From positions 1,152,001 through 1,216,000 of the forward strand of contig CAVOHZ010000010.1 in the NCBI GenBank assembly GCA_963695855.1: a stretch of DNA of 64,000 bases, given 5' to 3'. The stretch is from an uncultured Nitrososphaerales archaeon (GTDB lineage: Archaea; Thermoproteota; Nitrososphaeria; Nitrososphaerales; Nitrososphaeraceae). Below are positions 1,995 to 53,791 of this stretch, piece after piece. The notes under the pieces are model-generated. The model was not told the origin of the DNA and made no database searches. It was given only the letters and a program-made list of their open reading frames with translations. The position numbers were made by a program, and so were the translations under genes. Position 1 is the stretch's first letter. The number at the start of each line of letters is the position of its first letter.

Positions 1995-3209
1995 ATGTAT
2001 AAGAATTTTGAAAATAATAATAAACAATTTAAATCAAAATTAGTTGAACATCTAAATGAAACATTATTTATTGAAAATGAATCAATAGGTAGAATAAAAT
2101 CAAGAATAGAACAGACACCGATTCTAGAAGTAAAACAAAGACTACTTCAACATTTAGAAGAAACATATAAGCAAAAAAACAGACTAGAGCAAATAATTGT
2201 AAAATTATCATCAGAAAAATCTAATAAACATAAAGCAAATTTGTTACCATTAACACCTGATTCTTCTAGTATAATAAGAACGAATCTTAAAAATTCAATA
2301 AAATCATTACCAAGTAATGATGAAGGTTTCAATCAAAGATTTAAATCTCTTCCAGAAGAAACTGAATTAACAAGAATTAAGGAAGACTATATAATAGAAT
2401 ATGATGAGGTAGTTACCTATCATAAATTGATACATATTGCAGAAATGACAGATTTACCACAACCCAATGATATTATATCTTTACTAAAAGAAAGTATGCA
2501 GGAAGAAGAATCAATGGCAAACTGGTATCAAGTACATGTGTCAGTGATACTTGAAAACCTATGGCCAAAGCTGATAAATTCTCCCATAAAGCGAGCTCAA
2601 GAATTTCTTCTCAATTATGCGGGTTCTAAAATGCCACTTATTATAATGTATGCGGATCTGGTTGGATCGACTAATTTGAGTATGACTTTATCCGTAGAAA
2701 TTCTTATTGCATTAATAAGAGCATTTACTCATGAACTATCAAATGTTGTAGAAAGATATAATGGTTATGTTCTAAAATATGTAGGAGATGCAGTAATTTC
2801 TTTTTTTCCTTATGCCATAGACAACAAATATCAGGTATGCAAGAATTCAATTGAGTGTGCAAAGTCAATTATAGATGTAATCAATACAGAGATTAATGTA
2901 ATTTTACATAAAAAATATGGTTATCCAGAATTATTTGTAAAAATAGGTATAGATGAAGGAGAAAATGTTGTAATTCAATATGGATATGAAAGAAACTCAC
3001 TAATTGATATATTAGGATACAGTATGAATGTTGCAGCAAAGATAACTTCTCTAACCACTGCGAATAGTATATCCATCGGGGAAAATGTGTATCATTTATT
3101 GGATCATATCCAACAATCAGAATTTCAAGAGTTGAAAATATCTATCAACAATTGGAAATATATCAATCGTGATACGAAAGAACCTTATAGAATTTACAAG
3201 ATAAAGTAA
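1995..3209 (+). CDS. ferritin-like (DUF892/YciF-type) domain fused to class III adenylate/guanylate cyclase
   Basis: N-term HLEET, EYDEVVTY, EEESMANW; C-term YADLVGST, KYVGDAV, KIGIDEG, ILGYSMNVAAK. Confidence 0.85.
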   Translation: MYKNFENNNKQFKSKLVEHLNETLFIENESIGRIKSRIEQTPILEVKQRLLQHLEETYKQKNRLEQIIVKLSSEKSNKHKANLLPLTPDSSSIIRTNLKNSIKSLPSNDEGFNQRFKSLPEETELTRIKEDYIIEYDEVVTYHKLIHIAEMTDLPQPNDIISLLKESMQEEESMANWYQVHVSVILENLWPKLINSPIKRAQEFLLNYAGSKMPLIIMYADLVGSTNLSMTLSVEILIALIRAFTHELSNVVERYNGYVLKYVGDAVISFFPYAIDNKYQVCKNSIECAKSIIDVINTEINVILHKKYGYPELFVKIGIDEGENVVIQYGYERNSLIDILGYSMNVAAKITSLTTANSISIGENVYHLLDHIQQSEFQELKISINNWKYINRDTKEPYRIYKIK

Positions 3210-3429: not shown

Positions 3430-4379
3430 TGTATTATCCCACCACATGTGTTACACTCCTATTATACACTTGTACTGGTGTCATGTAGTTCAATGACATA
3501 TGTACTCTTTTATTATTGTAATATTTAATGAATTGCTCATGTCTTTTGAATCTAGGTCGCTCTACATCATATGTACGATGCCATCTTTCTATTTTACCAA
3601 GTGTGGTAGGTTTTCCTATACCACCCATAACATGTTGTATGTCATATTCTTTGCAGAAAGAATCAAAATCTGACTGTAATTTAGAATGTGAATTATAGAA
3701 TTGTGAACCATGGTCTGTCAGTATCTGTAATGGTTTTCCATATTTTCTGATTGTACGCTTCAATAGATAAATAATCTTATCTGATGTACCTTCTACACAT
3801 TTGATAGATGATAACACATATCTGGTGTGATCATCAAAAATAGATATCAGCCAAATTCCTTCATTTTCTATAACTTTCAGGTCAATCTGCCACAATTCAT
3901 TTGGAAATTTACGCTCAAATTGTATGTATTTTCTCTTCTTTCTGGGTTTGTTGATAGGATTGTTGTTCAATCCGCTTTTGCATAAAATTCTGTATACTGT
4001 CATATGTCCTACCTTTATGTTGTATTGGTTCGCAAGAGTTCCTTGTATCTTGTGTGGACAGTAATGGTATTTCTTTCTTAACTGTACTACCTTCTGTTCT
4101 ATCTTTTTATCTGTTCTATGAATTGTATGTGGGTCTTTTAGAATGATCTTTTAGTCCATTTAATCCCTCTTTCTTGTACCTGTTCCAGTATCTGTAGAAA
4201 CTCATTCTGGATATGTGTATATGTTTACAGATGTCAGTTACTTTCCATCCTCCTTCCAGTTTACGTCTTATACACCATCTTCTTATCTTTTCTAGATCTT
4301 GTTTATACTGCATCTAGTGTAACAACACTCCTTACTCTTACCAAGTAAAAGAGTGTAACAGATGTCATGGGATAATACA
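3430..4379 (-). mobile_element. IS481-family insertion sequence, 950 bp
   Basis: 29-bp TIRs starting TGT (TGTATTATCCCAccACATgTGTTACACTC, 3 mismatches); 16-bp flanking direct repeat CATACCTTATACCTTA at 3414-3429 and 4380-4395. Confidence 0.92.
3434..4313 (-). pseudogene. IS481 transposase (HTH + rve DDE), one frameshift near 4130
   Basis: ORFs 4116-4313 and 3434-4003 join as KRPHTIHRTDKKIEQKVV...MTVYRIL if one C is removed; WQIDLK, DDHTR, TDHGSQF, GKIERWH. Confidence 0.88.
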
Positions 4380-9723: not shown

Positions 9724-10194
9724 TTATAGTAAATGATTCTTTTTTACAATCTTTACAAATTCTTCTAACTTTTTCAAAGTTTGCTGATGTAAATGGTGTT
9801 CTATACCCTCTGCATCTTTATTTGCAATATCTTCGTCTACTCCAATCATTTTTAAAAATTCAGCCAACAAACTATGTCTCTGATGAATATTAATGGCCAC
9901 ATCAATCCCCTGCTGGGTTAGACAAATTCCCCTATATTTTTCATATTTGAGATAGCCAGTTTCATCCAATCGCTTTACCATTTTAGTTACACTTGGAGAA
10001 CTCACATTAAGGCATTGAGAAATATCTATGGTTGTAGCATAACCTTTCTGCTGTACCAATTCATAAATAACTTCAAGATAATCTTCCATTCTATCTGTAC
10101 GGTCTTCGTTTTCCTTCTTTCCGGTATGAGCATCACGAATCGATTCAAGACGATTGATACCTGCATCAGAGTCAGCTTTCAACTTTCTTAGCAA
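9724..10194 (-). CDS. mntR: DtxR/MntR-family metal-dependent regulator
   Basis: MEDYLEVIYEL, VSSPSVTKMVKRL, RHSLLAEFL, AEGIEHH. Confidence 0.92.
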   Translation of the reverse strand: MLRKLKADSDAGINRLESIRDAHTGKKENEDRTDRMEDYLEVIYELVQQKGYATTIDISQCLNVSSPSVTKMVKRLDETGYLKYEKYRGICLTQQGIDVAINIHQRHSLLAEFLKMIGVDEDIANKDAEGIEHHLHQQTLKKLEEFVKIVKKNHLL

Positions 10195-15290: not shown

Positions 15291-16637
15291 TTAATACTTA
15301 TGTTCTTTTTTTGTTTCTCTTATTACAGAATCTATATATTTTTCTAACTCATTTTCATCCAATTCAAATTTAGCCTCTTTGTCCATTTCTAGAGTATCTT
15401 TCTTTTGAGTAATTTTTTTGACAGTTCTTCGAATTTCGGCGTCCATCTCTGCTTGTCCTATTAGACCCAACAACCTTGACTCCAAGGCATGCTTACGTAT
15501 AAGTTTACGCAGATTATGATTAGTTGAAACAAGCGTTGCGGAATTGTAAATACCTAACAACATCAAAAATGCTCCTATATTCAAAACTGTTATCGATGAA
15601 AGTCCGAAAGGAGGATAAGGACTAACGACTTGTGTTGCTGCCTGATTTGCGGCAAATATTAAAAATATGCCAAAACCAGAGATTATCATGTATGTCCTGA
15701 TGATTCTATCATAACTAATGATTCTGGATATCTTCCAAAATGCAAGTCCGAAAAGCAATCCTCCGATGGGTTTACTTAATGCTAGGAATGCTCCTAACAT
15801 GATAGAAACAGTTACCGGATCAATTGCGAGATACGAAATTAGTATCCTGCTTAGGGTATACTGGTAAAAATATGTAATTAAAAAATACACAAGTGGTACA
15901 GACAATAAGATCCAATACACTATAGCATTTGTAGACTTCTCTCTGTAATTGTTCATTAATATTGCTGTTGTAATCCATATACTGAAAAAAGATATAAATG
16001 ACAAAATTCTGGAAACATTCGCTAAAAATAGATGTTTAGCCAAAGTTACGTCTCCCGAGCTTCCAACATATTCCCCTATACGATCTGGCAATGCATTCAT
16101 CTTGACACTGATAAAAGCGGCAGTCATGATTAAATTAAATGCTATCATTAACATTGACATAAAATATAAAAAGACAATCAAGTTGCGGTTTGATTTAAAC
16201 CAAGAGAAGAACATGATAGATAAAAATAATATCAAAGTTGCTGCTGTTCCATAACTTATAACAATTATCATAATACTGACAGGTGTGTAGAAGTAGTTAT
16301 TATGGAACTGTTGAAATATTAGAATTCCTATCAAACTTGCCAAAACAAATAATGAAATTAACGAAATTCTGTTAAAAGCCCAAACCATCAATCTCTTATT
16401 TAATTTGTAACTTTCAGATGAACTCTGTATATACTTTATAATCAAAAATTCTAAAAGCAGACATAATGAACTGTTGATGGAAAATAATATTAACTTACTT
16501 TGTAAAGGAATAAAATATTTATCAATGAGATCGTTTATCTTTACAACTGAAGTATCAATTAGTAAAGTCACTATTAATACGGTCACAAGAATAAGAAATT
16601 TCCTATTGCACCCTAATTTTTTATCATTTATAAGCAA
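15291..16637 (-). CDS. multi-pass membrane protein of unknown function
   Basis: About 10 TM segments and a charged C-terminal tail. Confidence 0.8.
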   Translation of the reverse strand: MLINDKKLGCNRKFLILVTVLIVTLLIDTSVVKINDLIDKYFIPLQSKLILFSINSSLCLLLEFLIIKYIQSSSESYKLNKRLMVWAFNRISLISLFVLASLIGILIFQQFHNNYFYTPVSIMIIVISYGTAATLILFLSIMFFSWFKSNRNLIVFLYFMSMLMIAFNLIMTAAFISVKMNALPDRIGEYVGSSGDVTLAKHLFLANVSRILSFISFFSIWITTAILMNNYREKSTNAIVYWILLSVPLVYFLITYFYQYTLSRILISYLAIDPVTVSIMLGAFLALSKPIGGLLFGLAFWKISRIISYDRIIRTYMIISGFGIFLIFAANQAATQVVSPYPPFGLSSITVLNIGAFLMLLGIYNSATLVSTNHNLRKLIRKHALESRLLGLIGQAEMDAEIRRTVKKITQKKDTLEMDKEAKFELDENELEKYIDSVIRETKKEHKY

Positions 16638-24552: not shown

Positions 24553-24890
24553 AATATATAGTTGTATAAGAAGTAGATAAAGGATTCATTAAATAGCAGT
24601 CGGATATATTGATATTACTGAAATTCTGATTCCTGTAGAAAAAAGTTCAATCTGTTGTATGATATATGGTATCAGAGGCAGAGTCAAATGTTTTTGACAC
24701 AATTCTGTAATACAAAATATTATTGTCAAAAAAATCAAGTTATTATTAATATCTGTCTATTACCGGAATTAAAATATCAGATTCAAATTAAAAAATCCTC
24801 TTGTTTTCATTTTATGTTTCTTGTTATATCGGTTAGACTAACGTCAAATAATCCATATCATTATATCTAGTCATAAATATTAACTAACAA

Positions 24891-26747
24891 TTGAGCACTA
24901 TCGATTATGAAAAAATCATTCAAGTTGTACGGTCGTCAACAAACAATCTTCTAAGCTCATTTCAAGAGAAAAATACTTTACTGAGACAATATCCAACGGA
25001 TATTAAATCCTACATCCGTGAGGGATATGATAAACAGAAAGCGTATGACTGTGCTGTAAATCTTTTTGGCAAGAATACGACTACGTTTATTGCTATAGAT
25101 GGCATAGAATCACAAGATCAATATTTGGATATGCTTGTCTTTTATGCTGGAGCCTTTGGCTATACTGGAGAGCTAGAATTCTCTAAAGATACGGGCTGTA
25201 AATATAAGGAGATAGAAGAATTGAAAGGAATTAACAATGTTTCCGCTGCCATTTCTATACATGAGCAGGATATCTCAAACATCGCAGGTCAGATAAAGGA
25301 AGGAGGAGTAGAGATCGATTCAGAAAGAATTCCAACTTCTCTGATGCAATTAGCAGAATACTATTTTGCTGTAAAGTCCGTTATCACAAATCCATGTATT
25401 CAGGTCGTCATCCTTGATAGAACTCTCGCCGGTGATGTTGCTCATCTTGTATGGAGTGTAGAAGAGCTATTACAATCTGACAGATGTATCTTAAAAGGGA
25501 TGGATACCGAATATGGTATAGTCACATCTTTGGATTTGGAACTAGCAAGGATTCTTCATCCAAATGAGCAACTGGAAATCCCTGTTGCCAGAAGTCATTT
25601 AATAAAATATGCTGCAATCAACAGACTCCTAAAACTAAAAGATAATCACAGTGTGAAAAACAATAATGTAACTTATGAAGCTTTACTATCTATGATCGGT
25701 GGATCTAACAAACGGCTAGATAAACTAAAATCCGATCTTTTGAAAATTGATGAAAAATATCACATTTTTCATGATGGGTCTAAAAATTTACTAAATAATA
25801 TGTTAGACACATTATATTGGGAACGTATATTGTCTGCATCTACTAAAATCTGCGAACATATCTTCAATACTCCTGATGGAAAACATCCACTTATTGTGGA
25901 AATACTAGGAAATAAGCACTGGATAACGGTAGCAGACATAGAGTATTTGATCTTAATGATGATTTACGCTCTATTGAGATTAGCATGGGAAAAAAATGTT
26001 CTTGTAATCGGTCTCATAAAAGATATAGGTGCATCGGAGATGACCAATACGGTCATCCCCTTGTTAAAAGAAGCAAGCAAAATAAATGAGAACAGATTGC
26101 CTCCATATGGTAGTGATAAGACCCTCCTTCAGACTGCAAGTGTTATCAACTCTTCTGACATGCGTACTCCTTGGAACACATTTGAATTTGATTCTTGTTT
26201 CAGGACTATAGTTCCTTTGCAAAGGAAAAAAAATAAAGGTCCTGATCTACAACTATCCATTCAAGTCAAAGGGGCATTCAAGAACGTTATATCATCGGAA
26301 AGAATGTTCTTGAAATCATATATCCAGCTATGGCAGAGCGATACTGACCCAGCAGTGAGAAGTCATGTATTCTCATATGACAGACCATGCTATCCACAAT
26401 ACGACATGACGGTAGATGATAAACTTGAATTATACCATGAAGACGGACAAGTGATTGAGAAAATTCAGCCTATGCTCCATTTCGACATTCAGAGCAGCAT
26501 CTCGCATCTTGTCATGGATATCCTGTCATCGATGTCACATGAAGTTATACCTGAATGCCTTGGTCATAATTATCCGCTTTTTTTAGCTGATAAGAAGGCT
26601 AAGGCATTACTTCAAGAAGGAAGACAGGCATATATCGCTGCAGTATCATTAGAATTGGCCAAAAGTCAACTTGACCAGCAAATATTATTTGAGAGTAGTT
26701 ATAGAGAATATCGATCGCAAGTTGAAGGTAAGAGGAGAAGGAGTTGA
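24891..26747 (+). CDS. enlarged NurA-like nuclease
   Basis: FIAIDG, VVILDRTL, VIGLIKD, GHNYPLFLAD correspond to NurA motifs; overlaps the HerA gene. Confidence 0.72.
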   Translation: MSTIDYEKIIQVVRSSTNNLLSSFQEKNTLLRQYPTDIKSYIREGYDKQKAYDCAVNLFGKNTTTFIAIDGIESQDQYLDMLVFYAGAFGYTGELEFSKDTGCKYKEIEELKGINNVSAAISIHEQDISNIAGQIKEGGVEIDSERIPTSLMQLAEYYFAVKSVITNPCIQVVILDRTLAGDVAHLVWSVEELLQSDRCILKGMDTEYGIVTSLDLELARILHPNEQLEIPVARSHLIKYAAINRLLKLKDNHSVKNNNVTYEALLSMIGGSNKRLDKLKSDLLKIDEKYHIFHDGSKNLLNNMLDTLYWERILSASTKICEHIFNTPDGKHPLIVEILGNKHWITVADIEYLILMMIYALLRLAWEKNVLVIGLIKDIGASEMTNTVIPLLKEASKINENRLPPYGSDKTLLQTASVINSSDMRTPWNTFEFDSCFRTIVPLQRKKNKGPDLQLSIQVKGAFKNVISSERMFLKSYIQLWQSDTDPAVRSHVFSYDRPCYPQYDMTVDDKLELYHEDGQVIEKIQPMLHFDIQSSISHLVMDILSSMSHEVIPECLGHNYPLFLADKKAKALLQEGRQAYIAAVSLELAKSQLDQQILFESSYREYRSQVEGKRRRS

Positions 26748-28627
26748 ATGTCTTGGTAGTAGGAAAAAATGAAACAGACACCATATTAGAATCTGAAATA
26801 GTAAAAGATAAAATGTTTGATTCAATTGAGGACAAGTTTTTTGCACGTCTAAGAGAAATTGCATCCACAACGAGAAATACAGCTGACGGTAAGGCTACTA
26901 TAACATTTCGTACTGCAAGAATCGAGGGAGTATATACACCAGATATAATAAAAAAGATTGAACCGGGGAGACTCGTTGCAATACCAAATACAATGTCAGT
27001 GGGTACAAATAATGCTTTTTCCGTGTATGAAATAGCAGATATCTACCCAATGCATTACAGTATGCTTACATTAGATCGAAATCAACCTGGGGCAATACGA
27101 AAGGAGTTCATGAACCTAATCGAAAAGGAATGGCATACAGACTCCAAGAGTACTTGGATAGAGATCATTGCAGCGCCAACCGGATATTCCATAATTTTAG
27201 ATACCGAACAGGAGCCAAAATTTATTAGAAAAAATACAGTTCCACTTATTGGTTCACAGGTACATTTACTGAATAAAAATACCATACAGAAATTTATCTG
27301 CTACACCCCAACAAATAACGAGAATTTAGATTTATATAATGTTGGAAAACTTTTGGGTTTTGCCGATACGGCTATACCCTTTACCATAAACCTGTACAAA
27401 TTACTCCACTATCATGTCGGTGTTTTTGCTTTTACTGGTTCGGGGAAGAGCAATTTAACGTCACTTATTATGAGGAAGACAATAAATTGTGTTCCATTTG
27501 TTAAGTTTGTGGTATTCGATGTATCATCGGAATATGGAATAAACATTCTAGATCTCCTGAAGGATTTTCCATCAAGGGTATTGTTTTCTGAGGATCTTCG
27601 TGGAAAGAATTCAAAGGATATGGCAGCAGATTATCTACGGAGACATGTTATTCCAGAAAGACTGGATCAAAAGAAAGATAATCTTCTTTATATGATCAAA
27701 GAAATAATAGACCAAGATAAAGTAACTAAAATATCTATAGAATCAGATGCTGAAAGAGATATGCAGGGCTTGGGAACGTATTCGGGCCTATTAAGGACGC
27801 TTGGTGACATTTCAGCAGAAAAATATGGAGCTGCAGGACAGAAAATTCTTATTCCTACAATAGCAGGTATGATAAGAAAATTTATGAACGATAACAAGAT
27901 CAGAGATGAAGACAGTTCCATCAGCAATGAAATTATTCCTTTGTTAGCTGAGATCAACAAACTACTTGTAAATGCAAAATTTCGACAGGATGCAACAATA
28001 TTATCCCTTTTTAATAATCTTAAAATTGCAATAGATAATCCTGTTACAAATAATCCTGCTGGATATTATTCAACAGATCTTGTTAAAGAGATAATGGATG
28101 AAAAAGAATCCTCGCCAAGGCTCTTTGTTATAAATCTCCCAGAAGCAGATACAGCAAGAACATTTTGTTCAGAGATTATTAAGAGGGTATTTAGGTACAG
28201 GAAAAATAGCTTCACTCTGAATCCAAAGATAATATTTGTCTTTGACGAGGCACAAGAATTCATTCCTTACGATAAAAGGAGAGAAGACGGAACAGAAACT
28301 TCTAGCAGGGCCGTCGAGAAATTGTTAAGACATGGTCGTAAATATAACCTACATGGTTGGATATCTACCCAGCGAATCGCTCATTTAAATACAAATGCAC
28401 TACAACAACTTCATAGCTATTTTGTAAGTACAATGCCAAGGCCGTATGATAGGCAGTTGATTTCTGATACGTTTGCCATCGATGATGCGTTTATGGACCG
28501 CACCTTAACATTTGAAAATGGAGATTGGCTTATGACAAGTTTCAAGGCAACAAATACCCAAAATGTACCTGTTTTCTTCCACGCAAAAGATAATGAAGAT
28601 TTCCTATCAGAAAGGATAATGAAATAA
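26744..28627 (+). CDS. herA: HerA-family (DUF87) ATPase/translocase
   Basis: HVGVFAFTGSGKS (Walker A), VFDVSSEY, FVFDEAQEF (Walker B), RHGRKY, STQR. Confidence 0.88.
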   Translation: MNVLVVGKNETDTILESEIVKDKMFDSIEDKFFARLREIASTTRNTADGKATITFRTARIEGVYTPDIIKKIEPGRLVAIPNTMSVGTNNAFSVYEIADIYPMHYSMLTLDRNQPGAIRKEFMNLIEKEWHTDSKSTWIEIIAAPTGYSIILDTEQEPKFIRKNTVPLIGSQVHLLNKNTIQKFICYTPTNNENLDLYNVGKLLGFADTAIPFTINLYKLLHYHVGVFAFTGSGKSNLTSLIMRKTINCVPFVKFVVFDVSSEYGINILDLLKDFPSRVLFSEDLRGKNSKDMAADYLRRHVIPERLDQKKDNLLYMIKEIIDQDKVTKISIESDAERDMQGLGTYSGLLRTLGDISAEKYGAAGQKILIPTIAGMIRKFMNDNKIRDEDSSISNEIIPLLAEINKLLVNAKFRQDATILSLFNNLKIAIDNPVTNNPAGYYSTDLVKEIMDEKESSPRLFVINLPEADTARTFCSEIIKRVFRYRKNSFTLNPKIIFVFDEAQEFIPYDKRREDGTETSSRAVEKLLRHGRKYNLHGWISTQRIAHLNTNALQQLHSYFVSTMPRPYDRQLISDTFAIDDAFMDRTLTFENGDWLMTSFKATNTQNVPVFFHAKDNEDFLSERIMK

Positions 28628-28754
28628 GATAAGATCCAAAATATTGGAGACAATCTGGACTTTATTATTACTTATCCAAACGATTAATCCTTTTAAATAC
28701 TAATCCCTGACATTCAACAATTTAAAGCCTAAGATAACTAAGCAAAATTTTAAT

Positions 28755-28995
28755 TCATATATATTCAGCATATATTGATCTATAAATGACATAATAGAGA
28801 AAAAGGTCATATATGATAACACATTCTCCAAAGATTCTCTTGATACAAAAGAAGACAGATTCTAAAATTCGTCTCTGTCCATTTCTAACGTTATCCTTAA
28901 ATTCTTGCAAATTTTTTTTCTGCATCTTTACCTTCTTGTTTCCTAGGTGGTGATTGATCTTCATATGAAATTCTTTCTTACTTTTATTGCTGGCT
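28755..28995 (-). mobile_element. IS5-like transposase C-terminal remnant
   Basis: GQRRILESVFFCIKRIFGE. Confidence 0.7.
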
Positions 28996-29187
28996 AGAAA
29001 CTAAACTCATATGACTTGGAATATGGGTAATATGACCATATTACTAGAAATTTTAGAATTCAATATTGTACCGTAAATTACAGACGTACTAAAAATGACT
29101 TTCTTTAAAAACGCTTCGATTTTAACAATAAGTAGGATTTCGAGTAATTGACAAACTTTCAGTTATATTCCTATCAAGAATATTCTT

Positions 29188-29465
29188 TATGGATTTGCTA
29201 AATTTTGCTGTTTATCTAGAAAACGACAACTTTTCAGGTCATTTACTGGACTGCAACTATCTGAATTTGATTCAATTTACGGGGAAATAGAATAGATATC
29301 AAAAATACGAGATAAAACGTATCTCTAAAAGAAAGCGCACAAGACGAGTAGGAACAGGAGATAAACGCTTTTTTAAACATACAGTAAAAGACAGATTTCT
29401 CATGCTTTTAGTATACTTCATATTGTACATAACACATACACTTTCTGGATTTCTGTTTGACCTGT
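29188..29465 (+). mobile_element. ISL2-group (HTH_Tnp_4-type) transposase N-terminal remnant
   Basis: FRSFTGLQLSEFDSIY, RTRRVGTG, VKDRFLMLLVY, SGFLFDL with frameshifts. Confidence 0.7.
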
Positions 29466-29827
29466 ACCACAACAGATTGTTAGCATCTGATTCTACTACG
29501 ACAATCAGATTTAAGACGCATCTTACATAAGGCATGGATTGGATTGGTTATGTTATAGTTTGTATCAAGTGGTAGTTTGATAAGAAAATCTATTATGTAA
29601 GAGCGATTAGAAAACTAGAGAAAGAGTTAAGGATAATGGTCTGACATTTTGAATGTCTTGATGGTTTAGAACATTAAAATATACTTCAGTATTGATTCTT
29701 ATACAATTTCTTATACAATCGTTCAATTAACAGATTCTATATTTGCTCTTAGATAAAGACAATTATGTGGATAGATTACATAAGTACGACAGGAAATAAA
29801 TTATAGATATAATTTTTTATTCAATAC

Positions 29828-32022: not shown

Positions 32023-33442
32023 TTGTTTTCCTCTAAAATCAAAATTACATTTTATGGGGGAGTAAATGAAATAGGTGGAAACAAAATCCTAATTGAAGAT
32101 AAGATACAAAGGTTTTCTTGGATTTGGAAAAAGTTTCAGCCGTAGAGCAAGATTTTTCTAAGAGTTCATCAATCCTAGAACGTCAAATGGTATTGTTGAC
32201 TTTATTGCTATGGGACTAGTTCCAGGTATTTCTGGAATATATAGAAATGATTTGATAAAACTAACAGGCAGAAAAACCGAAAAACCTGAAATTGCTGCAG
32301 TATTACTTTCTCATGCTCATTCAGACCATGCTGATTACATCTCTTTTTTGCATGAGGATATACCGGTTTACATGGGAGAAACATGTTATATGATTTTAAA
32401 GGCACTGGAGGAAAGGTCGTCCAGAAATATTGAAAGAGAGATACTAAACTACAAACCAAGACCATACAGTACAAAAGACAAAGCTATAGAAAGAAAAATA
32501 GAGACTTTTAGAACAGGAGACAAGTTCAAGATAGGTTCTCTCGAAATAGAACCAATCCATGTTGACCATTCAGTACCCGGAGCATATGGATTCATTATCT
32601 ATACATCAAGTGGACCTGTTGTGTATACTGGTGATATCAGACTACATGGATTCAAATCTCAAATGACATTTGACTTTATAGAAAGAGCTAAAGCGGTAAA
32701 ACCGATTGCTCTGATTACTGAAGGAACCAGGATAAACGACATAGAAAAGATAGAAAGCGAAGAATTAGTCTACAGAGAATCAGGCAAAATAGTTAGAGAG
32801 ACTGATAGGCTCGTTCTTGTTGATTTTAATTTCAAAGATGTCGACAGATTCCGGACATTTTACAACATAGCAAAAGAAAATAATAGAAAATTTGTTGTAA
32901 AACTAAACGATGCATATTTTCTAAAATATTTATCTCAAGACAAAAATCTTGACGTTCCAAATATAGATGACGAAGATATTATTATTTATTTGCCAAAGAG
33001 AGGTTCTGGAACATACTCAGATTCAGATTATAAGGGCAAAGATGGTCAGTTTCTAGATCTTCATAATGCATGGACCGCAGAACAAATTGCTCCAAGGGAA
33101 GACAAGGTGCTCTGTGCAATAGGATTTTTCAGTTTTACCGCGTTAATTGACATGAAACTAAAACCAGGTGCAAGATATATCCACTCCGCAAGTGAACCGT
33201 ATAATGAAGAACAAGAGTTTGACCAAGTTAGGATAAACAATTGGATTGAACATTTTGGTATGACAAAGTTTCAGAGTCACTGTTCAGGACATGCAAGAGG
33301 TCGAGATCTTTTAAATGTAGTCAGAGAGATAGACTCAAAGATGTTATTTCCTGTTCATACTGAATATCCAGATGCTTATGCCAAAGTCACAAAAAACATG
33401 ACGATAATAGAAGAGGGAAAAAAATATGTCATCAAAGGGTGA
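32023..33442 (+). pseudogene. RNase J-like MBL/beta-CASP hydrolase with disrupted 5' end
   Basis: SHAHSDH, VDHSVPGA, YTGD, ITEGT, HCSGHA, PVHTE in ORF 32210-33442; upstream ITFYGGVNEIGGNKIL...VFLDFG is broken by two 1-bp deletions and TAA at 32159. Confidence 0.85.
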
Positions 33443-41049: not shown

Positions 41050-42168
41050 TCATTTAATTATTTTGAATTCATCTAATACTTCGCCATCATTGGAATAGTA
41101 TTTACCTATTAACGTATTTCCATTATCGGCTACATCGACGTTTAAAAATCCATAGCTGGAATCTTGCTGATATACGATATAAGGTTCTTGGTTGGTAAAA
41201 GCATCAAAATTAACTCCACCAGTTCCTACTATTATCTGAAACATTCCTTTAGGGGATGTGTATTCTGTTTTGCCGTTATCGTTAATAATTGGTTGTGATG
41301 AATTTTTTTCATTATAAGATATGGGGTAGGTTCTTTGGTAATTATGAGCATGGCCACTAAACAGTATATCAACTCCATATTTTTCAAATAGTGGATGGTA
41401 TGTATCTCTCAATTTTTTTATTGGATCACAAGAGTCATGAAGTCCACAAAGCGAAGAATATTGCTGTCTATGGGTCATAACAATAATCCATTTTATATCC
41501 GGATTTTTTGATGCTTGTGACAGATCTTTATTAACATATTCATATTGTTCTGTTTCTTCAGCATCTGAGAAACGATCTTCCTCACCAGCATTATATGTAG
41601 ATTCAGAAGACATCATTAGAAAATGGATATTTTTGTCGTCAAATGAATAATACGGATCGGATAATTCAAAGTTTTCCATATATTGTTGAAAAAAGGTTGG
41701 CGTCATATAATCATGATTACCAACTATTGCCTTCATTTTATCAGAGATAGGTTTCACTATATCTAGCCAACAATTCATATCAGTACCATAGGATGTATCC
41801 CCAAGATTGAAGACTATTTCTGGATTGTGGTCTTGAATAGAATCTACTGTCTTTTTAGTATCTTTAGTGCAACCCCAATCACCAACCAATGCAAAATTGA
41901 AATTGGAGAAATTTTTTTCATCCTCAAACTGTTCATTTTTTTCCTTAAAAGACGTAAGTTGACTTTTAGGATCTGTACTTTCAGAGTTGTCACTTTTATG
42001 CGATGAAGAGCTTTTATCGCTAAATTCATTAGTATCATAATATTCTTCTGACTGGAATTCAAAAAAATCATCAGATTTGGAAAATGCAGTTTTTAATGAA
42101 ATATCAATAGAAAGTAATAAGGACAAGCTTAAGGAAATGATTAATATTTTATTATATTTATATAACAT
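41050..42168 (-). CDS. secreted metallophosphoesterase (purple acid phosphatase-like)
   Basis: GDWG, LGDTSY, VGNHD, MTHR, SGHAHNYQR. Confidence 0.92.
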   Translation of the reverse strand: MLYKYNKILIISLSLSLLLSIDISLKTAFSKSDDFFEFQSEEYYDTNEFSDKSSSSHKSDNSESTDPKSQLTSFKEKNEQFEDEKNFSNFNFALVGDWGCTKDTKKTVDSIQDHNPEIVFNLGDTSYGTDMNCWLDIVKPISDKMKAIVGNHDYMTPTFFQQYMENFELSDPYYSFDDKNIHFLMMSSESTYNAGEEDRFSDAEETEQYEYVNKDLSQASKNPDIKWIIVMTHRQQYSSLCGLHDSCDPIKKLRDTYHPLFEKYGVDILFSGHAHNYQRTYPISYNEKNSSQPIINDNGKTEYTSPKGMFQIIVGTGGVNFDAFTNQEPYIVYQQDSSYGFLNVDVADNGNTLIGKYYSNDGEVLDEFKIIK

Positions 42169-48842: not shown

Positions 48843-50011
48843 GAGGCTGGGTCATAATTATTCCATTTTCAAAACGAATAAAGCTAGTTTATTGGTGTAT
48901 GATGTTTTGGTGTAACTATCATCCAAACCAACAAACTAGCACAGCAGAAGAGATCAACATCTATTCTAATTAGTATTTTGTATTTGATTGGTTTGATTCA
49001 TTGGCCACATAACAGTAGAGGAGGAGGACGTGGTAGACCATATCTCTATTCTCCTACTGTTATTTTGAGATGTTTTGTAGTACGTATATGGTTTCGATTG
49101 GATTCCAACAGAGCATTGCATGAATACCTTGGAATGGAGATGCCATATAACAAAAAGGTAATGAGGGAATGTGGACTATCCAGAATACCTAGCAGACGAA
49201 CATTTGATAGACGTCTTGCTACGATATCTAATGATATCAAAAACAGAATTACTACAATGGGTAAACTTTTTGTGCATGATAAAATAATTGATCCATCTAT
49301 TCTTTCAGCAGACAGTACTCTTGTAAAGGCTAAAGGTCATGTATGGCACAAATCCTCTATAAAGAAGAAAGTAGTACCTCGTTCCGGTATCGATACAGAT
49401 GCAATGTGGGGAATTAGCCATACAAAGGGCTGGATATTTGGATACAAATTACATTTGATATCAAGTACAGGTTCTGTTATTGTACCTTTGGCAGCAGACT
49501 TTACAACTGCCAACATACCAGACAATCAGATGTACAGTATATTGACAGCAAGTCTTCCGTTTACAATGATTAAAAGAACATTATACATGTCTGCAGATCC
49601 TGGATACGATGATCATGAACTGTACGATCTTAGTACAGATATGGGATTTCAACTAGTGTGTCCAGTAAAGAGATATAGAAATACACCCTCTGACAGAATA
49701 AAACTGATAGAATTTTATGAATCTGAAGTTGGACAGACTATCTATTCTCTCAGAAGTATATCAATTGAACCATTGATAGAACATATCAAATCTGTCTTTA
49801 GAATAGATCCATTACCTGTGAGAGGATATGCCAAGGCTTCTTCAGTAGTACTACTATCAGTACTGCTCTATCAGATACTTGTGTATTATAACTGTAAAAC
49901 TAGAAAAGATAATCCAAGAGCAATCAAATACATGCTAGGAACATAATGACTGAAAACATCCTACTATTGTTAGCATCATAAAATTTGTTTATTGAATTAT
50001 GACCCACTCTC
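48843..50011 (+). mobile_element. complete IS (IS5/IS982-like DDE), 1169 bp
   Basis: 17-bp TIRs GAGgcTGGGTCATAATT (2 mismatches); 8-bp TSD AGATAACT at 48835-48842 and 50012-50019. Confidence 0.92.
48978..49946 (+). CDS. DDE transposase
   Basis: ADSTLV, DTDAMWG, FGYKLHL, ADPGYD, RSISIEPL. Confidence 0.92.
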   Translation: MYLIGLIHWPHNSRGGGRGRPYLYSPTVILRCFVVRIWFRLDSNRALHEYLGMEMPYNKKVMRECGLSRIPSRRTFDRRLATISNDIKNRITTMGKLFVHDKIIDPSILSADSTLVKAKGHVWHKSSIKKKVVPRSGIDTDAMWGISHTKGWIFGYKLHLISSTGSVIVPLAADFTTANIPDNQMYSILTASLPFTMIKRTLYMSADPGYDDHELYDLSTDMGFQLVCPVKRYRNTPSDRIKLIEFYESEVGQTIYSLRSISIEPLIEHIKSVFRIDPLPVRGYAKASSVVLLSVLLYQILVYYNCKTRKDNPRAIKYMLGT

Positions 50012-52499: not shown

Positions 52500-53791
52500 T
52501 TAATTATCGAGTATGTCCAACATACATATAATAGGAAAATGATCACTATAACCCGAATTGTTTTCTCTTCCTCGAGGAAAATTCTTATCAATTTCATATT
52601 GTTTGGTATTATCATTATAGTATTTTTTTTGAAATACAAATTCTGTAGGATTATCTTTCAACGATGGATGAATTTTTGTCTTATCTAGATAATAGTATTC
52701 GTTAATACTGTCATTAAATTTATCATAGGAAAGATTATCTACAAGTCTTAAGCCTTGGTAAAATATCTTTATACTGTTATCTCTAAATTTTAATTTCTGT
52801 TTTCCGCGATAAAGTCCCTGAGAGATAATAAATTGGTCAAAAAGGCTCCATCGTTTTGTTTTCCAATAGTATATAGTACCACCAGGAACGTTTGGATCAA
52901 TATCTGTATTTCCGATAGAATGCGGGTCAGCTACAAATTTCATCATAGGATTATATAAGCAAACGGGTTCTTCTAGGTAGTATTTTCTGAATGATACATC
53001 TACAGAACTTTTTTCTTCTCTAGCTCTTAATTCAAATATTTCTTTCCATTCTTTACAATATCTAATGTTAAAAACGGCATTTAAATATCTAGTTATACTT
53101 TCATCATACGGGTCATCATTGAAATCTCCCATTAACAGAATATTTTTGTTTAATTCGTAGTCAAGTTTCATTATATGAGGCATTTTATATACTTCCTCAG
53201 TAGGAACTTTTAGTAATGTATCAACTATTTTCCACATTTCTCTGCTACACTATTTCTAGCCTGAGCAGTATCATTTGGCTGGCATGCTTCATATTTTCCT
53301 CTTCTCGAAGGCCAATGATTGACCAGAACGTACAAATCAGAATTATTTTCTTTGACCTTGAGATGTGCTTGGAATATGTTCCTAGTGGGATATCTGAAAT
53401 CAATATTATATGCATTAGTGTCTAAACAATCAAATTTATATTTAGAATACACTAAACAAGTATCTATTCCTCGTAGATCTGGACTATCATTATATTGGGC
53501 TATTGCATATTTATCAGGATTTATTTTCTCTATTAATTTATCAAGTATGTTTTTATTTTCTACTTCGCATAAGCCTAGTAAATCTGGCCCATACTCAATA
53601 CTTTCATTCTCTTCATTATACTTCATAGATTTAATAATTTTAGATAGGTTTTCCACCTTGATATCGCGTACTTCCTTGTTCCACCCCTTTTCAGGAGTAA
53701 ACTCAAAATCGGTTGCTATCTCATTTTTTTCTATATCAAAGAGGTTTCCTACATTCCAGAATGCTATTTTAATATTTTTTTGTTGGGTCAC
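52500..53791 (-). pseudogene. endonuclease/exonuclease/phosphatase-family gene split by a frameshift near 53230
   Basis: WNVGNLFD, GLCEVEN, DLRGID, NHWPSR in ORF 53225-53791; MGDFND, FDQF, GYSDHFP in ORF 52500-53237; one missing A restores CGKIVD. Confidence 0.85.

Follow-up and report, generated by a model that had tools for sequence, protein, structure and literature searches.

The 64,000-nucleotide stretch of DNA analyzed here (the window; positions 1,152,001 to 1,216,000 of contig CAVOHZ010000010.1, assembly GCA_963695855.1) comes from an uncultured Nitrososphaerales archaeon and carries a two-gene locus for a long NurA-family nuclease and a HerA/FtsK-family ATPase. Gene 1 (24891-26747, 618 amino acids) and gene 2 (26744-28627, 627 amino acids) are open reading frames (ORFs) on the forward strand, both with a TTG start. 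They overlap by the four bases TTGA, which hold the stop codon TGA of gene 1 (26745-26747) and the beginning of the gene 2 start codon (TTG at 26744). The overlap, the length of the nuclease, and the four motifs quoted in a preliminary description of this DNA (IDGIE, LDRTL, HNYPLFLAD, and AFTGSGKS) are all present in the ORFs and their translations. A purine-rich run resembling a Shine-Dalgarno sequence, AGGAGAAGGAG (26731-26741, forward strand), lies within the end of gene 1 ahead of the HerA start; together with the overlap it forms the usual layout of translationally coupled genes, and the two genes may be coupled in this way. Both ORFs are evidently real, full-length genes and not chance ORFs because they have many relatives in the database (246 proteins for gene 1 and 342 for gene 2 at E ≤ 1e-3), the closest being 97% identical over 618 amino acids for gene 1 and 99% identical over 624 amino acids for gene 2. 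The composition of the pair is ordinary for coding DNA within the window.

The spacer upstream of gene 1 is 338 nucleotides long, and the sole stretch of it conserved in a 76%-identical relative (locus L002 of the genome scan described below) measures 26 nucleotides (24852-24877, forward strand; 92% identity, E = 6e-4). This element contains a TATA-like TTATAT about 25-30 nucleotides 5' of the start codon, and its counterpart in L002 (9959-9984) lies just ahead of the gene start at 10001. Judged by the general geometry of archaeal promoters, it probably serves as promoter for a transcript with a short leader or none. A 71-amino acid ORF at 24655-24870 matches no Pfam family, has no relative in any locus, and overlaps the promoter-like element, and it was therefore treated as probably spurious.

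The preliminary description called gene 1 NurA-like, and its membership in the NurA family, as a divergent and enlarged nuclease, is now established because its relatives, its predicted structure, and its aligned motifs all lead to NurA. Among 74 aligned relatives with 19-83% identity to the query (alignment A2), 27 match the Pfam NurA family (PF09376) at E ≤ 0.01, the best at 2.8e-11, and the same family is precomputed in 5 of the 120 homologs listed out of the 246 matches. An AlphaFold2 model built on the 74 relatives (predicted local distance difference test, pLDDT, 91.8; predicted template modeling score, pTM, 0.92) superseded an earlier one built on 32 close homologs, which had a pLDDT of 62.8 and left the C-terminal half unmodeled. 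In a Foldseek comparison of the final model with the PDB, NurA chains fill the ten top places (E of 2e-8 to 2e-6, probability 1.00), with template modeling scores normalized to the target of 0.33-0.60 (0.60 for 2ygk); they come from Thermococcus kodakarensis, Pyrococcus furiosus, and Sulfolobus solfataricus. Sequence searches of the PDB with the single gene 1 protein or with a profile of its close homologs returned no NurA, and PADLOC gave no match for gene 1. The profile of the whole family aligns with P. furiosus NurA (3tai); the match is weak (E = 0.015) and consists of three short segments, which coincide exactly with the nuclease motifs quoted earlier.

Within these stretches, the IDG of IDGIE (residues 69-73, 25095-25109) aligns with AVDGS of 3tai, LDRsLsG around LDRTL (residues 175-179, 25413-25427) aligns with LMDGTLTG, and GHNxPLFLADKxAK around HNYPLFLAD (residues 559-567, 26565-26591) aligns with GGYLRPLQLAHHGVK. 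D70 in the first motif is the predicted first catalytic aspartate and D176 in the second a further one, and E156 (25356-25358) is the predicted catalytic glutamate, presumably equivalent to the canonical NurA glutamate. D70, E156, and D176 do not vary among the 74 relatives, L563 occurs in 100% of them, and D567 occurs in at least 90% and is aligned with the histidine of the canonical LAHH motif. Given the residues that we take to be catalytic in the solved NurAs, the nuclease site of gene 1 looks intact, with an aspartate in place of the canonical histidine.

With 618 amino acids, the gene 1 product exceeds the matched NurA chains (319-433 residues) by about 170-290 residues. Part of the excess is a probable winged-helix insertion in the NurA fold, at about residues 225-305 (25563-25805), on the weak evidence of the model and of low-scoring profile matches. 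The model places helices at residues 238-251, 262-268, and 273-290; beyond them, two isolated bridges of one residue each, near 293 and 303, may represent a hairpin. The profile matches of this region to Z-alpha and MarR-type winged helix-turn-helix (HTH) chains are weak (E of 0.06-0.6), and eight HTH or winged-helix Pfam families appear at E of 0.001-0.01, each in one of the 74 relatives, which are perhaps not eight distinct members.

Gene 2 belongs to the HerA family. It contains the Pfam domain PF01935 (DUF87, "Helicase HerA central domain") at E = 5.3e-16, with 59.8 bits where the cut-off is 23.2, it is matched by 15 PADLOC families, namely 14 HerA models and one mad8, and HerA chains in the PDB match its family profile at 3e-12 to 6e-6. 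The Walker A motif AFTGSGKS (residues 229-236, 27428-27451), which had been regarded as a variant, is an ordinary P-loop of the general pattern [AG]x4GK[ST]. Its residues G232, G234, K235, and S236 are invariant in the 44 HerA rows over which conservation was scored (alignment A3), as are the Walker B residues D501 and E502 in IFVFDEAQEF (28244-28249). The protein scores far under the NCBIfam cut-offs for canonical HerA (NF040937 and NF040819; 34.6 and 28.5 bits against 800 and 970) and for anti-phage HerA (NF042943 and NF042944; 58.4 and 32.2 bits against 800 and 850). With the longer nuclease and its changed motifs, these scores bear out the earlier view of the pair as non-canonical. In the PDB, the family profile matches DUF4297-HerA and Sir2-HerA chains at 2.7e-12 to 3e-11, T. 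kodakarensis HerA at 3.8e-9, and S. solfataricus HerA at 5.7e-6, and gene 2 may be read as a separate branch of the HerA family, somewhat nearer the non-canonical HerAs.

All 120 listed proteins among the 246 gene 1 relatives from the word-indexed search are at least 49% identical to it; the names given are all "hypothetical protein," from Nitrososphaeraceae, Nitrososphaerales, or Nitrososphaera sp. AFS. An exhaustive search of 50%-identity representatives found 330 relatives, and look-alike clusters in the Atlas were named automatically, for example as "putative NurA domain-containing protein." Genomes, one per species, were then scanned for exact matches to either of two 8-residue patterns, which are invariant or nearly so in 32 close homologs and not in distant ones. 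The scan gave 70 related loci (71 with the window) in many Nitrososphaerota, including one metagenome-assembled genome (MAG) of the Conexivisphaerales, in Methanomethylicia, and in deeper Thermoproteati; seven of the 70 belong to Methanosuratincola or Methanomethylicaceae, and seven, at 26-29% identity, are distant loci from genomes of Thermoprotei, Marsarchaeota, or "Thermoproteati." The family is conserved in soil archaea and others, and complete or near-complete genomes with it include CP186953.1, CP130488.1, OY970160.1, and CP117708.1. ORF clustering places a HerA ORF immediately 3' of the nuclease in 67 of the 71 loci, and tblastn adds it in L029, L039, and L052, where shadow ORFs had been picked, which gives 70 of 71; the remaining locus, L054, stops at the contig end. 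The distance from nuclease stop to HerA start lies between -8 and +8 in 57 of the 67 pairs and equals -4 in 24. Hidden Markov models built from A2 and A3 revealed no NurA or HerA paralogs in the locus flanks beyond the pair itself.

Independent trees, computed by a quick maximum-likelihood method for the nuclease (60 rows, after exclusion of 14 fragments shorter than 500 amino acids) and for HerA (44 rows), agree in their main clades. The nuclease and HerA are strictly co-inherited, and their pairing is a genetic one, seen in gene order. The window groups with L001 and L002 (support 100) in a Nitrososphaeraceae clade in both trees. This clade is sister to Methanomethylicia and not to the other Nitrososphaerota (99 and 96 in the Shimodaira-Hasegawa-like approximate likelihood ratio test), and its HerAs are 59-62% identical to Methanomethylicia rows (L006, Methanosuratincola-type) versus 51-54% to those of other Nitrososphaerota. 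Such a placement suggests either an old transfer, whose direction cannot be assigned, or paralogy. The preliminary description had named vertical inheritance as one ground against a defense role, and here the answer is divided: most of the family looks vertically inherited, whereas the clade of the window has undergone losses and rearrangements and is oddly placed in the trees.

Neither mre11 nor rad50 adjoins the pair, as had been noted earlier. Both are absent from the whole window by Pfam (49 of the 57 ORFs of at least 100 amino acids were scanned, the other 8 being nested in longer ORFs), and the scanned ORFs include no SMC/Rad50-type ATPase and no cas genes. The sole metallophosphatase in the window (41050-42168) carries a purple-acid-phosphatase C domain. 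Across the 70 related loci, no recurrent neighbor cluster is Mre11 or Rad50, and neither adjoins any of the pairs, apart from one SMC-like ATPase by L028.

We favor, by a little over even odds, the reading of this locus as a two-gene operon in which an enlarged, divergent NurA-family nuclease and its cognate HerA ring ATPase form a maintenance module independent of Mre11-Rad50. The parts of this reading differ in strength. A mechanism of the NurA-HerA type is quite likely, by analogy with solved HerA-NurA complexes, and the pair probably works without Mre11-Rad50; a family-wide role in genome maintenance, that is, in the processing of broken or damaged DNA, is about an even proposition. By that analogy, a HerA hexamer would start at a free end and drive the DNA duplex into a NurA dimer that sits on the entry face of the hexamer; there, an RNase H-like metal site (D70, E156, and D176, with D567 at the canonical histidine position) would cut the strands, and the winged-helix insert may add recognition of DNA or of DNA ends. 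A predicted complex of the full-length nuclease (A2) with HerA residues 1-200 (A3) obtained a score of 0.01 and a mark of 0.32, which speaks neither for nor against binding.

The maintenance role is suggested because the pair keeps conserved synteny with ordinary genes, has repair-type neighbors in 17 of the 71 loci, and has no match in the plasmid and phage collections. For the neighborhoods, 1,202 non-overlapping ORFs of the loci and the window were clustered, and recurrent or adjacent clusters were annotated with Pfam. A clade of Nitrososphaerota that are not ammonia-oxidizing archaea retains a thermosome gene, a TetR regulator, pterin dehydratase, a major facilitator superfamily transporter, and a CoA-binding protein around the pair, and the Methanosuratincola clade retains lipoate ligase, radical SAM proteins, and a TrmB-type regulator. 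The repair-type genes were counted within three genes of the pair. An AlkZ-like glycosylase (PF06224, E = 3.7e-57) follows HerA directly on the same strand in four loci (L031, L046, L048, and L062, e.g., L062 2182-3450), an AP_endonuc_2 TIM barrel lies near the pair in six and a LigD Prim-Pol in four, and XPB with Bax1 (L011), an Lhr-type helicase (L070), and an AlkD-like protein (L002) occur once each. A link to alkylation or cross-link repair, through the AlkZ-like and AlkD-like genes, recurs in separate clades.

Several results weigh against this maintenance reading. Taken alone, gene 1 reaches 13.6 bits with Pfam NurA (E = 0.046), under the cut-off of 21, and it matches no NCBIfam model. 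The 17 loci with repair context are phylogenetically clustered and not independent, and PF01261, the family of the AP_endonuc_2 barrels, also spans sugar isomerases. Even canonical HerA-NurA has been argued to degrade both strands and perhaps to serve defense (PMC12977600, 2026). The best PADLOC model for gene 2 is "HerA, Type III coevolved" (PDLC01055; 7.6e-34, 115 bits), and gene 2 scores slightly better against defense-type than against canonical HerA structures, the gap being modest. Type I restriction-modification (R-M) genes adjoin two of the pairs, as a complete system at L006 and as a restriction subunit at L060. Lastly, the window shares no neighbor with the 76%-identical L002, and the nuclease N-terminus has been lost, away from contig ends, in three other loci of the clade (373 residues in L014, 308 in L021, and 439 in L059).

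The clade of the window comprises 13 loci, namely nine tree rows, L060 from the HerA tree, and L014, L021, and L059, whose HerA identity is 62-70%. Because synteny is lacking and the nuclease is truncated in three of these 13 loci, the pair appears dispensable and positionally mobile in this Nitrososphaeraceae clade. L003 and L004 have nearly identical proteins in rearranged contexts. Outside this clade, large nuclease losses were found only in L061. Frameshifts occur in L003, L013, L029, L053, and L063, some of which are possibly sequencing errors. The fluidity is perhaps not specific to the pair because the window shows a generally fluid genome: it has genes for integrase and transposase, one gene split in two, and long gaps without coding sequence. 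A ParB_N/HTH_ParB protein is encoded two genes downstream of the decayed pair in L014 (11241-12332, reverse strand) and may indicate a mobile-element context there.

The points on gene 2, on R-M genes, and on the clade of the window also favor the strongest rival, a stand-alone defense module in which HerA would load wherever invading linear DNA has a free end and the NurA-like protein would be the effector that destroys this DNA. Sir2-HerA and DUF4297-HerA would be the counterparts of such a module, with NurA taking the place of their effectors. Defense is further favored by a DNA methylase three genes from the pair in L007, by two pairs in one Methanosuratincola MAG (L032, 10004-13614, in conserved context, and L006, on a 13-kb contig), by the grouping of the window's clade with Methanomethylicia in both trees, and by the absence of named cultured ammonia oxidizers (Nitrososphaera viennensis, Nitrososphaera gargensis, Nitrosocosmicus, and Nitrosopumilus) from the 70 pattern-scan loci. 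However, the defense role proposed in the preliminary description was not supported by the search for defense genes: no PADLOC model, including those for NurA, Sir2, and DUF4297, matches any of the 74 nuclease relatives, and none matches the four scanned window neighbors of the pair. R-M genes remain within three genes of the pair in 3 of the 71 loci (L006, L007, and L060), versus 17 for repair-type genes, and no cas cassette lies beside any locus; the only traces among 150 neighbor representatives are a weak Csa3-like match (L013, 3.9e-6) and a TnpB/Cas12f-like one (L055). Synteny is kept in two large clades, and the plasmid and phage collections hold no relative of the pair, which is weak evidence as both contain few archaeal elements. 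Defense is thus possible, especially in the clade of the window, on thin positive evidence, and as an account of the pair we consider it doubtful. A bolder version is somewhat more doubtful still: the long pair would be an archaeal stand-alone innate immune system, the first HerA defense module with a NurA-fold effector, its winged-helix insert sensing invading free ends, exchanged horizontally between Methanomethylicia and soil ammonia oxidizers and present alongside a canonical repair locus (NurA-HerA-Mre11) within one lineage.

The 150 neighbor representatives searched with PADLOC were drawn from 161 neighbor clusters of at least 110 amino acids within three genes of the pair, and 15 of them gave a match, most of which Pfam re-reads as non-defense genes. 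"PbeA" in L011 is XPB beside Bax1, "BrxHI" in L070 is the Lhr-type helicase, and "mad2" in L003 is a methyltransferase of the small-molecule type; the same may hold for L056, by its shared PADLOC name only. "Mad3" turns out to be the ATPase of an ABC transporter and "PD-T4-6" in L008 a response regulator, and TnpB is another of the Pfam readings.

It is improbable that the pair is a DNA pump that serves the cell in some other way, for instance in importing or exporting DNA, resolving chromosomes, or processing replication forks, with the nuclease trimming or nicking rather than degrading. HerA does belong to the FtsK/HerA pump family, gene 2 weakly matches the NCBIfam model of the DNA-import ATPase CedD (E = 8e-8), and HTH proteins follow HerA directly in two separate clades; on the other side, the CedD match is far below its cut-off (31 bits against 600), no conserved neighbor of the pair is a membrane or pilus gene, and the metal-site residues are invariant. 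One of these HTH-type proteins, a 364-amino acid protein in L064-L069 (cluster 42; e.g., L064 13262-14353), has no Pfam match and HTH_24/AsnC-type look-alikes in the Atlas, and the other is a 265-amino acid TrmB-type protein in Methanosuratincola (cluster 33; L026 13685-14482). Each of them could represent a regulator or a third component.

Least probable of all is that the pair serves as part of a mobile element, integrated or in decay, and has no function for the host; this would fit the non-coding 1.2 kb after the pair with its one weak transposase-HTH match, the integrase and transposase genes of the window, the variable context within the clade, and the ParB-like gene near the decayed L014 copy, but not two intact genes 97-99% identical to database copies, of ordinary composition, without flanking repeats in a repeat search, without integrase, replication, or conjugation genes within 8 kb, and without plasmid or phage relatives. 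The 1.2-kb stretch had been described as insertion sequence debris, a view that found little support. Of five stop-to-stop pieces in 28628-29827, one matches HTH_Tnp_4 below threshold (E = 0.02, 14.9 bits, cut-off 27) and four have no Pfam match, and the stretch has no repeat elsewhere in the window by self-BLAST or by tblastn with all locus ORFs.

The clear integrase and transposase genes of the window are far from the pair, namely an rve-type integrase core fragment of 189 amino acids (3434-4003, reverse strand) and a DDE_Tnp_1 transposase of 322 amino acids (48978-49946, forward strand). Several stretches of more than 1 kb lack an ORF of at least 100 amino acids; coding density is low, and there are signs of mobile-element activity. 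Adjacent ORFs of 188 and 245 amino acids (52500-53791, reverse strand) match the N- and C-terminal parts of one Exo_endo_phos_3 model, which looks like a gene split by a frameshift. A 404-amino acid protein (1995-3209, forward strand) combines an N-terminal DUF892 (ferritin-like) domain with an adenylate/guanylate cyclase catalytic domain. A metallo-beta-lactamase (MBL)/RMMBL gene of beta-CASP-like type (32210-33442, forward strand) lies 3.6 kb downstream of the pair, and MBL/RMMBL fragments lie directly upstream of the pair, divergently oriented, in L002 (8454-8879, reverse strand) and L003 (8622-9487, reverse strand). Within the clade of the window, the MBL/RMMBL genes may be left over from a once shared gene order or may act together with the pair. 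Relatives (24-26% identity) of a 448-amino acid window protein without a Pfam family (15291-16637, reverse strand) occur a few genes from the pair in L004 (7682-9076, forward strand) and L003 (14241-14903, forward strand), the L003 copy being shorter and having a weak PADLOC match to PDC-M57B.

The processing of DNA ends in mesophilic archaea, including the globally important ammonia oxidizers, is poorly known. Surveys based on sequence models can score these lineages as lacking NurA because the listed proteins are named "hypothetical protein" and the nuclease lies below the Pfam NurA cut-off. The role of canonical HerA-NurA itself is now disputed between resection and defense (PMC12977600), and a separate NurA-HerA branch offers a concrete target for biochemistry and a cleaner system in which to ask what NurA-HerA is for.

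The closest known systems include the canonical archaeal NurA-HerA of the mre11-rad50-herA-nurA operon, represented by S. solfataricus (2ygk/4d2i), P. furiosus (3tai), and T. kodakarensis (9x1l-9x1p). This system and the pair share the RNase H-like NurA fold with three aligned motif stretches, a HerA with a DUF87 core and Walker A and B motifs, and adjacent, co-oriented nuclease and ATPase genes. Unlike canonical NurA, the window nuclease is 618 amino acids long, has a probable winged-helix insert, and carries an aspartate opposite the LAHH histidine, and unlike the canonical operon, the pair has no adjacent Mre11 and Rad50 in the 71 loci and gene 1 alone finds no sequence-level match in the PDB. 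Compact NurA-HerA-Mre11 clusters are reported for Nitrososphaera-type genomes including N. viennensis, N. gargensis, and Nitrososphaera evergladensis, and HerA and NurA are given there as "not detected" by KOfam in another Nitrososphaera-related lineage (PMC13707971, 2026). These clusters detectable by KOfam and the long pair would seem to be different systems with different distributions because the three species are absent from the loci of the long-family scan and HerA is not followed by Mre11 in the long pair of Nitrososphaera sp. AFS (L007).

The Deinococcus radiodurans NurA-HerA (7f6d) is likewise a two-gene module without adjacent Mre11-Rad50, as described in PMC12977600. Unlike the long pair, it belongs to another host domain and has a much shorter NurA, and its structural match to the gene 1 model is weak (7f6d_G, E = 0.056, rank 25). 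It is not known to have a winged-helix insert. The HerA/NurA coevolved with CRISPR type III (clusters 57 and 58 of Shah et al.; PMC6546367) provide the best PADLOC model for gene 2, but no PADLOC model fits the nuclease or its 74 relatives and no type III cas genes lie near. Sir2-HerA and DUF4297-HerA (8yho, 8j4u, 8wiv, and 8xau) also combine a HerA ring ATPase with an effector gene and are the best-matching solved HerAs by sequence, whereas the partner here is a NurA-fold nuclease, the hosts are archaeal, and the context is mostly syntenic and chromosomal. The structure 8yho appears to come from a study of Sir2-HerA (PMC11514289). The full-text literature, as covered by result listings and some passages, yielded no description of a NurA of about 600 amino acids with a winged-helix insert or of a separate NurA-HerA branch in the Nitrososphaerota, which is not proof of absence. 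Already known, then, are the automatic NurA-domain names of some members; new is a separate NurA-HerA branch, probably independent of Mre11-Rad50, with an extra domain that resembles DNA-binding domains.

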